A stretch of 32,000 nucleotides of DNA from Alteribacter aurantiacus DSM 18675. GTDB lineage: Bacteria > Bacillota > Bacilli > Bacillales > Salisediminibacteriaceae. A program made the translations under genes and the position numbers. This document shows positions 6,263 to 15,000 of this stretch, in pieces. The stretch covers positions 2,006 to 34,005 of the forward strand of contig NZ_AUCJ01000010.1 in assembly GCF_000429705.1 (NCBI RefSeq), in the 5' to 3' direction. The notes beneath the pieces were generated by a model. The model made no database searches. It saw nothing but the letters and a program-made list of their open reading frames with translations, and was not told where the DNA came from. How positions within the stretch are numbered: the stretch's first letter is position 1; the number at the start of each line of letters is the position of its first letter.

Positions 6263-6321
6263 AAAATGTCGGGGGACAGACCCCGCACAAAATGTTTTGG
6301 GGACAGACCCCCGAACATTTT
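6263..6321. repeat. Tandem doublet of the REP-like palindrome family
   Basis: AAAATGTCGGGGGACAGACCCCGCAC (6263-6288) is immediately followed by AAAATGTTTTGGGGACAGACCCCCGAACATTTT (6289-6321). Both carry the family core GGGG-ACAGA-CCCC. The doublet lies 25 nt upstream of the protease start. Confidence 0.8.
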
Positions 6322-9130: not shown

Positions 9131-9158
9131 AAAATTGTGCGGGGTCAGACCCCTGTGG
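9131..9158. repeat. REP-like palindrome, half-degenerate copy
   Basis: AAAATTGTGCGGGG-TCAGA-CCCCTGTGG: canonical left arm, diverged right arm. Confidence 0.7.
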
Positions 9159-10285: not shown

Positions 10286-10352
10286 GGGTAAAAAAAGCCG
10301 AGAGACGCATGAACGCATGATCATCAGGGCTCACGCCATCAATCAAACAAAG

Positions 10353-10404
10353 AACCCCTCCATTTTTCAGGTATATGATCCTGACCGAAGGAGGGGTTGT
10401 TTTA
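10353..10404. terminator. Stem-loop between convergent genes (probable bidirectional terminator)
   Basis: AACCCCTCC (10353-10361) pairs with GGAGGGGTT (10390-10398). The 28-nt loop contains its own small TCAGG/CCTGA stem. The T-tail GTTTTA is weak. Confidence 0.5.
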
Positions 10405-10411
10405 GATGGGG

Positions 10412-10696
10412 TTAATAGTGTGAAGGACGTTGGTGGGACATTTCCAAGAAGGAGCGGAGGATGACTTCGTCTGAGTTGATGTTTTCGATGTGCTTCGCTT
10501 CCACGCTTCGTTTAAACTCGAGGATGTCTTCTTGAAGAAAAGCCATCTGTTCTATGGCCTCACCCATTCCTTTGTTTAAGAAGGTGAGGTCTTCTTTTTT
10601 TACCATGGCACGCTCTATGTGAGCGAGTTTATGAAGGACGGATTTGAGTAAGTCCATTTCTGTAACGGTTGAGGACGATTTTAAGGCGGTTGTCAT
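10412..10696 (-). CDS. Hypothetical 94-aa predicted-helical protein, translationally coupled to the ssb-like gene
   Basis: Its ATG overlaps the stop of the upstream SSB gene as ATGA (10693-10696). AGGTG lies 7 nt upstream. The heptad-like charged sequence suggests a coiled coil or helical bundle. I recognise no family. Confidence 0.6.
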   Translation of the reverse strand: MTTALKSSSTVTEMDLLKSVLHKLAHIERAMVKKEDLTFLNKGMGEAIEQMAFLQEDILEFKRSVEAKHIENINSDEVILRSFLEMSHQRPSHY

Positions 10697-11055
10697 TGTT
10701 CGGCACCTGCTTCCTGTAAAGTGGAGGATTCTGTTTTTTTAAGTTGAAGGAATTGGACGTCTTCTGCGATCATGTCCATTCTGAAAATCCGTTTGTTATC
10801 ACTGTTTTCGTATACTTTTGACTGCAATCGGCCCGAAACTGCGACCATCGATCCTTTGCCGCAATGTTCGGCTATCTTTTCTGCATTGTTTCGAAAGATC
10901 GTGCACGGAATAAAATCGGCGTCGTAGTTGCCGCTTTGGTTTTTGTAGCTCCTCTTCACAGCTAGTGAAAATCTTGATAGTGGCACACCATCCTTTGTGT
11001 AGACAAGTTCGGGGTCTTTAACGATTCGTCCGATTAAATTTACTTGGTTCAACAT
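10693..11055 (-). CDS. Single-stranded DNA-binding protein, short SsbB-like form without an acidic C-terminal tip
   Basis: OB-fold SSB signature: MLNQVNLIGRIVKDPELVYTKDG...AVKRSYKNQSG...DFIPCTIF...GSMVAVSGRLQSKVYE. The protein is 120 aa and ends ...LQEAGAEQ, with no DDDxPF-type tail. GGAG follows directly after the upstream stop. Confidence 0.85.
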   Translation of the reverse strand: MLNQVNLIGRIVKDPELVYTKDGVPLSRFSLAVKRSYKNQSGNYDADFIPCTIFRNNAEKIAEHCGKGSMVAVSGRLQSKVYENSDNKRIFRMDMIAEDVQFLQLKKTESSTLQEAGAEQ

Positions 11056-11070
11056 GGGGAATCACGCTCC

Positions 11071-11730
11071 TTAGTTTTGAAAAGCTTCTTTTAACAAACA
11101 AGACAATTTCCATTCGCGCTCGACATACGTCTGGTAATGAATATGACTTGGCACCGGAAACAGGGACGTGAGTTTTTCGGTTGAAAGTGACAATGGTGCA
11201 GGAGGGGATGGGTGTTGATCTAAAAATGTTACAGATGTTTCTCTTGTTAGTGAGTGTGCTTTTTGGCGAGTTGTTTCGAGTTTTACTTGTGATTGAATGT
11301 AGTGATAATAACTACTCCAAGGATAGTCTTCCGGATTTTTTACCATACCCGCCGCTCGCGGATTGTTATGGATGTAAGCACTCGTCTTCATTAAGGCGTG
11401 TGATGACGGGACCGGAGTTGAATAGTAGCGGTCTTGAAACAGATGACCTTTTAAGTCGTACTTTTTATTGATGTATCTGGCGTACATGGAGTTGAGCGGC
11501 TGCATCACCTTATGAGGTGGATCGCTTTTTGTTCCGATCAAGAGATGGACATGGTTGGTCATCAAGCAGAAAGCATGAAGATGAAAAGTTGAATAATGAT
11601 AAGCATCATCGAGCAGTGAAACATACTTGAAGTAATCTTTTCGTTCAAAAAACAAGTTACTTCGGTGGTTTCCGCGGCAAGTAATGTGGTAGATGGCACC
11701 AGGAAACCACTGGCGGGGTTTTCGAGCCAT
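11071..11730 (-). CDS. IS200-like Y1 HUH transposase-family protein (RAYT-type, COG1943-like), 219 aa
   Basis: N-terminal YHITCRGN, an HUH motif H60-V61-H62 (MTNHVHLLIG), and a catalytic-Tyr helix S-A-Y119-IHNNPRAAGMV. GGAG lies 8 nt upstream of the ATG. There is no tnpB and there are no IS ends. Confidence 0.8.
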   Translation of the reverse strand: MARKPRQWFPGAIYHITCRGNHRSNLFFERKDYFKYVSLLDDAYHYSTFHLHAFCLMTNHVHLLIGTKSDPPHKVMQPLNSMYARYINKKYDLKGHLFQDRYYSTPVPSSHALMKTSAYIHNNPRAAGMVKNPEDYPWSSYYHYIQSQVKLETTRQKAHSLTRETSVTFLDQHPSPPAPLSLSTEKLTSLFPVPSHIHYQTYVEREWKLSCLLKEAFQN

Positions 11731-11816
11731 ATAGGTAGCTCCTTTAGTGGAAATTTCAATTTTTTGGGGAGAGTGAGTGGTCGAACGATCCTCCTTTACT
11801 TAAAGCATTTTTTTGC

Positions 11817-11854
11817 CGTACGTGAAGTTTGCCCTAGGGGATACTTCACGTACG
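11817..11854. repeat. Perfect 12-bp stem hairpin upstream of the RAYT-like gene
   Basis: CGTACGTGAAGT (11817-11828) pairs with ACTTCACGTACG (11843-11854). The 14-nt loop contains the palindrome CCCTAGGG. The hairpin lies about 90 nt upstream of the RAYT-like start codon. Confidence 0.6.
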
Positions 11855-12310
11855 ACCGGGTGAAACGTGACGTTTGTGACGAAACAGCAAAATCCTGTGG
11901 TGCTAAAAAAATCCGCAGCAAATATGAGAAATTGGCCAAAAAAAGGTGCGCAAACTAGAGATTGGCGCGAAGATGTTCTATTCTGTTAAAACGATTTGAC
12001 CAATTTCGTGCGGAGAGTGTGTTCTCATTGCACAAGTTTGCCGTTTTAAAACGAAAGGGCAAGCCTCGTCAAGGTGGTGGCGAGGGTGCAATAAGCGTTT
12101 CAGTATCATTTGAGGGTGACGAGGATTACCCTTCTATGAATACTGGTGAAAGAGGATTGGCCCGATGTGAGATATCGTTCTACAAAGTGAACAACTCGGG
12201 ATCTTTAGAGGAGAAAAGACGTGAAATGGTGTCTCTTCTTGATTTCCATTTTATTCAATAATTCGGACAATTTCAAGCACTAATTTACAAAATATACAAA
12301 AATAATCCAT

Positions 12311-12343
12311 AAAAATTGTGCGGGGACAGACCCCGCACAATTT
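12311..12343. repeat. REP-like palindrome, perfect copy, doubling as the asnB terminator
   Basis: AAATTGTGCGGGG-ACAGA-CCCCGCACAATTT has 13-nt perfect arms at 12313-12343. It overlaps the asnB stop codon (12342-12344) by 2 nt. On the minus strand the hairpin is followed by TTTTTA. Confidence 0.85.
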
Positions 12344-14467: not shown

Positions 14468-14498
14468 CAATATTGTGCGGGGTCAGACCCCTTTGTCG
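14468..14498. repeat. REP-like palindrome, half-degenerate copy
   Basis: ACAATATTGTGCGGGG-TCAGA-CCCCTTTGTCG: canonical left arm, diverged right arm. Confidence 0.7.
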
Positions 14499-14518
14499 AA
14501 ATTAGGCGTTCGAAAGAA

Positions 14519-14547
14519 TTTGACTGAGGTTTTGGGCGTTGCTATAT
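14519..14547 (+). promoter_or_regulatory. SigA-type promoter of the cold-shock gene
   Basis: TTGACT (14519-14524), a 17-nt spacer, then TATATT (14542-14547). This leaves a leader of roughly 50 nt before the ATG at 14602. Confidence 0.6.
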
Positions 14548-14601
14548 TATAAGTGTGGTCAAGCCACAAGATTTTTAATACGAAGGGAATGTGTTAGAAA
14601 C

Positions 14602-14799
14602 ATGCAAGGAAAAGTGAAATGGTTCAACGCTGAAAAAGGTTTTGGTTTTATCGAGCGCGAAGGTGGAGACGACGTATTCGTTCACTTCTCTGCGATCGAA
14701 CAAGATGGGTTCAAATCTCTTGAAGAAGGTCAAGACGTTGAATTCGAAATCGTAGAAGGTGCTCGTGGCCCGCAAGCGGCGAACGTAACCAAACTGTAA
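14602..14799 (+). CDS. Cold-shock protein (CspA family, CspD-like)
   Basis: [32 protein letters not shown]... carries the RNP1 (KGFGFI) and RNP2 (VFVHF) motifs and is 65 aa. The ORF-track start at 14539 is an upstream extension. Confidence 0.92.
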
Positions 14800-14884
14800 T
14801 GCTTCGCACTTCCCTGAAATAGAACGTGCATCAAATCATATGATTTTGTTTACGTCAGTAAGGGGTAAAATGTAAGCGAACACA

Positions 14885-14925
14885 ATCCCGTCATGAAGCC
14901 TAAACGCTTTGTGGCGGGATTTTTC
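14885..14925 (+). terminator. Probable terminator of the csp gene
   Basis: ATCCCG (14885-14890) pairs with CGGGAT (14915-14920) and is followed by TTTTT. The loop is long, which lowers confidence. Confidence 0.5.
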
Positions 14926-14967
14926 TGTGTCCATAAAAGTGTCTTTCACAGAAATACATATGTTCAC

Positions 14968-15000
14968 AAAATTGTGCGGGGTCAGACCCCGCACAATTTT
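14968..15000. repeat. REP-like palindrome, perfect 33-nt copy
   Basis: AAAATTGTGCGGGG-TCAGA-CCCCGCACAATTTT has 14-nt perfect arms flanked by A4 and T4. Confidence 0.85.

Follow-up and report, generated by a model that had tools for sequence, protein, structure and literature searches.

The window analysed here is a stretch of 32,000 nucleotides from Alteribacter aurantiacus DSM 18675 (contig NZ_AUCJ01000010.1, positions 2,006 to 34,005 of the forward strand). Three genes are packed closely on its minus strand (Table 1): a gene for a protein of the HUH/Y1 family (the HUH protein), a gene for a paralogue of the single-stranded DNA-binding protein (SSB) and a small open reading frame (ORF) for a 94-residue protein. 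An earlier description made from the DNA letters alone, hereafter the sequence-only reading, had proposed that the HUH protein is a domesticated transposase of the RAYT type, that is, a tyrosine transposase associated with repetitive extragenic palindromic (REP) sequences, and had raised the possibility that it forms a fixed module with its two neighbors. The packing it described is all present in the sequence, including the three ORFs, the 15-nt gap and the ATGA by which the SSB gene and the small ORF overlap (10693-10696). Hidden Markov model (HMM) searches assign the HUH protein to Pfam Y1_Tnp (E=3.4e-16) and the SSB paralogue to Pfam SSB (E=2.4e-26), and place the 94-residue protein in no family. 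The comparisons described below identify the HUH gene as RAYT-like and suggest that it joined an older two-gene operon only once.

Table 1 Positions of the genes and sequence features in the window and of the conserved palindrome in relatives
Feature	Position	Strand	Remarks
HUH/Y1 gene	11071..11730	(-)	219 aa, class-2 RAYT / TnpA-REP-like
SSB paralogue gene	10693..11055	(-)	120 aa, single OB fold and 13-aa non-acidic tail
Small ORF	10412..10696	(-)	94 aa, conserved core from M15
HUH-SSB junction	11056..11070	(-)	15 nt, HUH stop to SSB ATG
Sigma-70-like match TTGAAA-17-TAAAAT	12248..12276	(-)	consensus match just downstream of palindrome
Structured non-coding leader	11731..12245	(-)	promoter-like site to HUH ATG
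Near-perfect 19+19 nt hairpin CGTACGTGAAGTTTGCCCT / AGGGGATACTTCACGTACG	11817-11854		in leader, ~90-120 nt upstream of HUH ATG
Inverted repeat AACCCCTCC...GGAGGGGTT	10349..10402	.	between small ORF and convergent manA
REP-like palindrome AAATTGTGCGGGGACAGACCCCGCACAATTT	stem 12313..12343, core 12322-12334	.	directly after asnB stop
Post-asnB palindrome in relatives	L082 7390-7418; L083 7260-7292; L084 7063-7095; L085 7350-7386; L086 7303-7339; L087 6866-6898
REP-like element, half palindrome and core GGGGTCAGACCCC	9132..9153	.	next copy across operon, past manA
Doublet of REP-like cores, REPIN-like	6272-6284 and 6299-6311 (6272..6311)	.
Two REP-like copies flanking csp gene	14479-14491, 14978-14990 (14479..14990)	.
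Other palindrome copies	7219, 16612, 29985

The HUH protein is a domesticated RAYT-like enzyme

The HUH protein, annotated as a transposase in A. aurantiacus (100% identical), matches Y1_Tnp (PF01797) with 59.9 bits against a cut-off of 23. The motifs by which it had first been recognized, H60-V-H62 and Y119 within YIHNNP (Y119-I-H-N-N123-P124), are present, and all 22 homologues share H60, H62, Y119, N123 and P124. The arrangement Y---NP is the tyrosine signature of class 2, which comprises the TnpA-REP-like enzymes (Quentin et al. 2018, PMC6006769). Among the NCBIfam models, REP_Tyr_transpos (NF047646) scores 73.4 bits, whereas the IS200 model reaches only 21.7 (cut-off 55). Because 73.4 bits lies below the equivalog cut-off of 80, the HUH protein is a divergent relative and no equivalog of the curated set. 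The sole sequence match in the PDB of a profile built from the 22 homologues is TnpA-REP of E. coli (4ER8). The AlphaFold2 model of the HUH protein (predicted local distance difference test score, pLDDT, 89; predicted template modeling score, pTM, 0.84) also has 4ER8 as its top Foldseek match, with a template modeling (TM) score of 0.76 on the target and a root mean square deviation of 2.3 Å. Ranks 1-30 are all Y1 transposases, and IS200, IS608 and ISDra2 lie below 4ER8.

TnpA-REP is thus the best match among solved structures in both sequence and fold. The HUH protein shares with it and with other RAYTs (4ER8; PMC6006769, PMC5581495) the HUH motif and the Y---NP tyrosine helix, the lack of a second copy (in the window), apparent vertical inheritance in a syntenic position and the company of dispersed extragenic palindromes. 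However, it is only ~19% identical to the E. coli protein, to which it adds a linker and a C-terminal helix. The linker (residues ~150-180) is disordered, and the helix (195-218) carries the clade motif LFPxPxxxxYxxYVEREWKL. Unlike the E. coli gene, the A. aurantiacus gene comes first in an operon that includes an SSB paralogue, and the nearest palindrome lies ~590 nt away and does not directly flank it.

The TnpA proteins of IS200/IS605 elements (IS608, ISDra2) have the HUH/Y1 fold and the single-strand DNA hairpin chemistry in common with the HUH protein, but they match it less well in sequence and fold. In agreement with the sequence-only reading, tnpB, a second HUH copy and insertion sequence-like or subterminal hairpin ends are all absent from the whole 32-kb window, and the chromosomal position of the gene is fixed, in contrast to such elements, which occur in multiple copies. 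Because tnpB, a second copy and element ends are missing from the window, the HUH gene is no insertion sequence. It is a domesticated class-2 RAYT-like Y1 enzyme: the preference for REP_Tyr_transpos over IS200, the match to 4ER8, synteny in 7/7 genomes and a ratio of nonsynonymous to synonymous substitution rates (dN/dS) of ~0.08 all bear out the earlier proposal of domestication.

Within class 2, the closest described group is that of the TIRYT proteins of TIRtrons (Di Nocera 2013, PMC3733652). TIRYTs correspond to subclass 2.1 of Quentin et al. (PMC6006769), in which nearly all sequences of RAYT Group 1 (PMC5581495) are also found; Group 1 has the widest taxonomic spread of all RAYT groups, Clostridia included (Bertels 2017, PMC5581495). 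The likeness lies in inverted GGGGWSAS motifs at fixed distances around the retrieved homologues and in the palindromes of the window, which contain GGGGTCAG or GGGGACAG. Unlike in TIRYTs, the motif lies here in self-complementary hairpins that are dispersed densely (9 per 32 kb), no motif is found within 250 nt of the gene and a C-terminal helix-turn-helix (HTH) domain was not detected. Because this domain was not detected, the HUH protein is not filed as a proven member of TIRYT or Group 1; these are its probable nearest relatives within class 2.

Conservation of the three genes and of the SSB pair

Exact-protein look-ups retrieved the locus from A. salitolerans, A. populi, Evansella sp. AB-P1, E. 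halocellulosilytica, 'Bacillus' shivajii and E. caseinilytica. The HUH gene, the SSB gene and the small ORF are adjacent in all six of them, as the sequence-only reading would lead one to expect, and follow asnB in the same orientation, with csp beyond asnB on the opposite strand, as in A. aurantiacus. A convergent manA gene follows the trio in 6/7 genomes, and Evansella sp. AB-P1 has a DUF8042 gene there. The gaps between the HUH and SSB genes in the six orthologous loci are 14, 16, 132, 57, 21 and 5 nt, the gap of 132 nt being that of Evansella sp. AB-P1. The three proteins diverge in parallel and are under purifying selection (Table 2); dN/dS was taken from the closest pair per protein and is approximate because dS is near saturation. 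The trio is real, stable and functional in the Alteribacter-Evansella clade.

Table 2 Identity (%) of the three proteins to those of the window and approximate dN/dS
Protein	A. salitolerans	A. populi	AB-P1	E. caseinilytica	E. halocellulosilytica	B. shivajii	dN/dS
HUH	73	61	48	47	43	46	0.08
SSB	81	66	50	51	49	50	0.12
Small protein	68	65	54	49	49	47	0.10

The SSB gene and the small ORF also occur as a pair in the same slot by csp, without asnB and HUH, in Alkalicoccus (L089-L091, L093; L numbers denote the loci compared), in Salipaludibacillus daqingensis (L094) and in two metagenome contigs (L095, L096). The manA gene follows the pair directly in S. daqingensis, L092, L095 and L096 and lies several genes further in Alkalicoccus. 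In L092, a Logan assembly contig, the pair adjoins manA, and the 662 nt covered upstream of SSB are too short for csp or HUH. Because the pair holds the same slot without HUH, it looks older than the HUH gene. In a protein tree of ManA, the HUH-bearing genomes form one clade.

A wider comparison covered 80 other RAYT loci (L002-L081) from many phyla, which are the genome-collection matches listed; the closest orthologues are not among them. Searches with tblastn, an SSB HMM and phmmer with E. coli SSB found an SSB or small-protein homologue within 6 kb of 0/80 of these loci. As a general rule, the fixed module of HUH, SSB and small protein considered earlier is thus not supported, since the pair lives without HUH in sister genera and no SSB lies by any of the 80 listed RAYT genes. 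For the same two reasons, the association of HUH with SSB rests on one evolutionary event. Gene order alone weighs little because the flanking csp, hpf, secA and manA genes are equally syntenic.

The trio has no plasmid match in a blastn search against plasmids. A defense or phage origin was considered and rejected: PADLOC gave zero matches, and PHROGs matched the SSB only.

The SSB paralogue and the small helical protein

The SSB paralogue matches Pfam SSB (PF00436) over residues 2-103 with 92.2 bits (cut-off 26), and its PDB matches are SsbA and SsbB at 1e-29. It ends in TLQEAGAEQ, which agrees with the earlier description of a 120-residue SSB without acidic tip, and the acidic tip D-D-D-I/L-P-F was found neither in it nor in the tails of 12 relatives. 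These relatives are 119 to ~169 residues long, with variable, non-acidic tails of up to ~60 residues. Residue 54 (10894-10896 in the window) is Phe in A. aurantiacus and Trp in 11/11 relatives (CTIF versus CT[LA]W or VSW); judging by its position, it is presumably among the aromatic residues with which SSBs stack on DNA. The SSB of S. daqingensis, called at 208 residues (L094 7355-7981), seems over-extended at its N-terminus, the conserved start MLNQFTLIGR lying 47 residues in.

The obvious counterpart is SsbB of B. subtilis (YwpH; PDB 3VDY), the ComK-dependent competence SSB, which is likewise a short SSB with a single oligonucleotide/oligosaccharide-binding (OB) fold and no acidic tip and is likewise a second copy, apart from the usual location rpsF-ssbA-rpsR. 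However, the A. aurantiacus SSB scores equally against SsbA (105.8 bits) and SsbB (105.1 bits) of B. subtilis, and the NCBIfam models PRK06752 (114 bits) and PRK06751 (112 bits) both stay far under their own cut-offs. The tails of its relatives reach ~60 residues, its neighbors are others, and it always precedes a small protein with an ENINSD motif, of which no B. subtilis counterpart appeared in these searches. In B. subtilis, ssbB forms an operon with glcR, and ywpG lies upstream, outside the operon (PMC3460841). A scan of 13 upstream regions for ComK boxes (AAAA-N5-TTTT pairs, spacing 8, 18 or 31, at most 2 mismatches) found no pair; the consensus is that of B. subtilis and is weak for this lineage. 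The most fitting description of the protein is a second SSB, specific to this lineage and always paired with a coiled-coil protein. The alternative offered by the sequence-only reading, a competence SsbB next to which the HUH gene landed by chance, survives in part: the SSB operon does appear older than the HUH gene, but no ComK box, no signal for SsbB over SsbA and no ssbB-glcR synteny was found.

The 94-residue protein had been described as helical, and AlphaFold2 indeed predicts one long helix from residue 3 to 88 (pLDDT 87). A fold search of the PDB gave no match, as expected for a lone helix, and the protein belongs to no family in Pfam, PHROG or PADLOC. The family consensus is KHIENINSDE with the invariant core H-x-ENINS. 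Most orthologues begin at the equivalent of M15 (MTExDLLK) and are ~80 residues long. Conservation thus does not extend to residues 1-14, and only A. aurantiacus, A. salitolerans and, by its gene call, A. populi have the ATGA overlap. An HMM search of 1.84 billion representatives returned only 20 clusters at E<=1e-3, the named ones from Alteribacter, Evansella, Alkalicoccus, Paenalkalicoccus, Salipaludibacillus, Salisediminibacterium and Texcoconibacillus, and a metagenome scan added one Alkalicoccus-like contig. An identity with B. subtilis YwpG was rejected, given that ywpG precedes ssbB without belonging to its operon (PMC3460841) and that the named members of the ~20 clusters all come from the same genera.

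A predicted transcription unit with a structured leader

Promoters were called by scans for the sigma-70 consensus. The match at 12248..12276 is the sole one on the coding strand from asnB to the SSB start and lies ~520-545 nt before the HUH ATG. A promoter-like match is similarly placed after the palindrome in 5/7 species, and none is found inside the HUH gene in those five. The inverted repeat between the small ORF and manA is a probable two-way terminator that would end the operon. These predicted signals and the spacing of the genes make it likely that the trio is co-transcribed.

Between the promoter-like site and the HUH start lies a leader whose predicted structure is unusually stable: its minimum free energy is -138.3, compared with -104.8 +/- 5.8 for shuffled sequences (z = -5.8; 0/100 dinucleotide shuffles as stable). 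In five species, in which mononucleotide shuffles were used, the z of the sense strand ranges from -3.4 to -8.4 and is always more negative than that of the antisense strand. The leader is 0.5-0.9 kb long across species (equivalents in L082-L085), and its sequence is conserved within Alteribacter only. The near-perfect hairpin listed in Table 1 recurs in A. salitolerans and, in part, in A. populi, and the remaining genera carry other hairpins about as far upstream. No Rfam family reached its gathering threshold in the whole window, and at E<=1 the leader gave only a chance-level match to STnc260 (22 bits). The predicted structure may act as a repressive leader of the kind known from IS200 tnpA, or it may consist of decayed hairpin repeats. 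Two other readings of this region were rejected. Searches of the 610-nt asnB-HUH spacer against six species by tblastx and blastn gave nucleotide similarity within Alteribacter and the shared palindrome only, and no hidden gene. The region upstream of SSB in HUH-less genomes has no similarity to the region upstream of HUH, as a leader derived from the old SSB promoter region would have.

REP-like palindromes and the GGGGWSAS motif

The window contains 9 copies of the palindrome GGGGWCWGWCCCC, where 0.06 would be expected, all of them in intergenic DNA. The local cluster reported earlier, with a nearest copy about 580 nt upstream of HUH, is thus present: the nearest copy lies ~582-591 nt upstream of the HUH ATG, and the next one downstream is 1.9 kb off, past manA. 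The fuller consensus is AAATTGTGCGGGGTCAGACCCCGCACAATTT. It lacks the 5' GT[AG]G tag of canonical REPs and has the core GGGG-N5-CCCC instead.

A palindrome stands at the same place after asnB in 7/7 HUH-bearing genomes, always with the outer stem AATTGTGCGGG...CCCGCACAATT. The core reads GGGGWCWGWCCCC in Alteribacter and GGGACCTGGTCCC or a like sequence in Evansella and 'B.' shivajii; from genus to genus, the inner core and the loop vary alongside the other palindromes of each genome. The changing core may reflect co-evolution of repeat and enzyme, or the palindrome may be a conserved asnB terminator that seeded the family.

GGGGWSAS has been reported in inverted repeats flanking TIRYT genes (Di Nocera et al., PMC3733652), which belong to subclass 2.1, and PMC6006769 likewise gives this motif for that subclass. 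The 80 listed RAYT loci contain 38 occurrences of it within 250 nt upstream of the gene start, against a background of 0-5 per 250-nt bin, and 20 of its reverse complement directly behind the gene (+750..+1000). Near these genes, the motif is often seen as tandem copies of GGGGTCAG. This confirms the published TIRYT motif and extends it to Bacillaceae, Actinomycetota, Acidobacteriota, Planctomycetota and candidate phyla. Because they read GGGGTCAG or GGGGACAG, the palindromes of the window carry the motif of this RAYT family. A hairpin of the GGGGTCAGACCCC type lies 50-180 nt upstream of the RAYT gene in other Bacillaceae (L004, L005, L010) and on both sides of the gene in two actinobacterial assemblies (L047, L075).

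Palindromes were counted per locus in a small, phylogenetically confounded sample. HUH-bearing loci have 5-9 copies in Alteribacter and 1-3 related ones in the Evansella group, and none was found in the seven loci of HUH-less relatives. For these few, phylogenetically confounded loci, the distribution agrees with a link between RAYT and palindrome.

Probable capture of a RAYT into a pre-existing SSB operon

The observations are best explained, with a probability of about 0.6, by a RAYT that was captured once into a pre-existing SSB operon and then inherited vertically, a working partnership with the operon being possible. The older operon would consist of the tail-less SSB and the ~80-residue coiled-coil protein and would be confined to a few alkaliphilic Bacillaceae. 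The class-2 Y1 enzyme would have been gained directly upstream of it, probably before Alteribacter and Evansella diverged, with or after asnB; we infer a gain rather than a loss as the direction of the event. In the resulting transcription unit, transcription would start at the promoter-like site after the conserved palindrome and run through the structured leader and the trio to the terminator shared with manA. E. coli TnpA-REP binds and cuts REP hairpins. By homology, the HUH enzyme most likely binds and cuts single-stranded hairpins of GGGGWSAS-type palindromes such as AAATTGTGCGGGGWCWGACCCCGCACAATTT. The SSB and the small protein may have an older role of their own in the handling of single-stranded DNA, and co-expression may bring the HUH enzyme together with the pair.

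Several observations weigh against this explanation. A protein tree of Hpf, a shorter protein than ManA, is ambiguous, and the HUH-bearing genomes are not monophyletic in it; a loss of HUH in other genera instead of a single gain is possible. None of the C-terminal HTH domains of subclass 2.1 (Bac_DnaA_C, HTH_23, HTH_28) was found in the HUH protein by Pfam, where Y1_Tnp is the only match at E<=1. Most family members have GGGGWSAS within 250 nt of the gene, but the A. aurantiacus HUH gene does not: here all copies of the motif belong to palindromes that are 590 nt or more from the gene. Because both the nearby motif and the HTH domain are missing, the substrate is assigned by family analogy only. 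Co-transcription is deduced from spacing and a crude consensus scan, the 132-nt gap of Evansella sp. AB-P1 could hold a promoter of its own, and promoter-like matches lie inside or near the HUH gene in 'B.' shivajii and E. caseinilytica. In addition, HUH-SSB gaps that have stayed very short for so long could reflect selection for coupled expression, which would favor a true module over a historical capture.

In such a module, the three proteins would be one machine: the RAYT needs the SSB and the coiled-coil protein to present or protect REP hairpins or to restrain cleavage, and this dependence keeps the operon together. Retention of the trio at 7/7 loci, six of which kept gaps of 5-57 nt as HUH identity fell to 43%, would suit such a machine, and so would the purifying selection and similar divergence rates of all three genes and the single promoter-like site upstream of HUH in most species. 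Y1 HUH enzymes also act on single-stranded DNA, and 4ER8 is a complex with a REP hairpin. Nevertheless, a three-protein machine is rather unlikely: the SSB and small pair is conserved without HUH in sister genera, SSB lies near 0/80 of the other RAYT loci listed, and other Bacillaceae (L004, L005, L010) have the same RAYT family and palindrome core with no adjacent SSB. Moreover, csp, hpf, secA and manA are just as syntenic, and the association amounts to one evolutionary event.

Somewhat less probable still is a purely neighborly arrangement, in which the SSB and the small protein, with an SsbB-like role in recombination or competence, are expressed from their own promoter inside or after the HUH gene, and HUH is expressed independently and is unrelated to them. 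The greater age of the pair speaks for this possibility, together with the 132-nt gap and the promoter-like matches within HUH in E. caseinilytica and B. shivajii noted above and the resemblance of the tail-less SSB in length to B. subtilis SsbB. However, none of A. aurantiacus, A. salitolerans, A. populi, AB-P1 and E. halocellulosilytica has a promoter-like match from the HUH start to that of SSB, and in A. aurantiacus and A. salitolerans, the SSB ribosome-binding site AAGGAG overlaps the HUH stop codon. Moreover, the 13 upstream regions lack a ComK box of the B. subtilis consensus with up to 2 mismatches, and the SSB scores equally on SsbA and SsbB. Finally, an active insertion sequence of the IS200/IS605 type with a chance SSB neighbor is very improbable, because apart from the Pfam domain name 'Transposase IS200 like', everything speaks against it: 21.7 bits for IS200 (cut-off 55) versus 73.4 for REP_Tyr_transpos, no tnpB, second copy or subterminal end hairpins adjoining the gene, and a single chromosomal position in seven species with divergence that tracks the host.

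Domesticated, single-copy transposases of the RAYT type are widespread, and what they do in the cell is not yet understood (PMC5581495). Clues from gene context are rare for them, as most RAYT genes stand alone between their own repeats. What is new here is the operon context of a RAYT and the hairpin form of GGGGWSAS repeats in Bacillaceae: a RAYT, an SSB paralogue and a small partner probably form one transcription unit across at least two genera. It is a tentative and rather doubtful suggestion that in Alteribacter and Evansella a RAYT has been wired into an operon for the handling of single-stranded DNA, in which the SSB and the coiled-coil protein join the HUH enzyme in acting on REP-like hairpins, for instance by holding the strand open or by limiting cleavage at replication forks or on incoming DNA. 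If this were true, it would provide the first genetic handle on a 'housekeeping' role of RAYTs. Sister genera with the same locus but without the RAYT, and without palindromes in the sampled loci, offer a natural comparison, which in this group of cultivable Bacillaceae makes testable whether this RAYT family creates or maintains GGGGWSAS palindromes and whether SSB paralogues modulate Y1 enzymes. Should the adjacency be only historical, the locus would still be a clean case of a domesticated transposase taken into a host operon.

Other features of the loci

The REP-like elements at 9132-9153 and 12322-12343 are 91% complementary over 22 nt and enclose a 3.2-kb block of manA, the small ORF, SSB, HUH and the leader; given the local density of palindromes, this complementarity may be due to chance. 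Close doublets of cores, able to form a larger hairpin, are found not only in the window but also in L082 (13883-13928) and L083 (15301-15346), upstream of a large S8 peptidase gene, and the equivalent doublet of A. salitolerans forms a 19-bp hairpin. In E. halocellulosilytica, a DDE transposase in two ORFs, possibly frameshifted, has inserted between hpf and csp (L085 3216-4429), where the gene order is otherwise that of the other loci.

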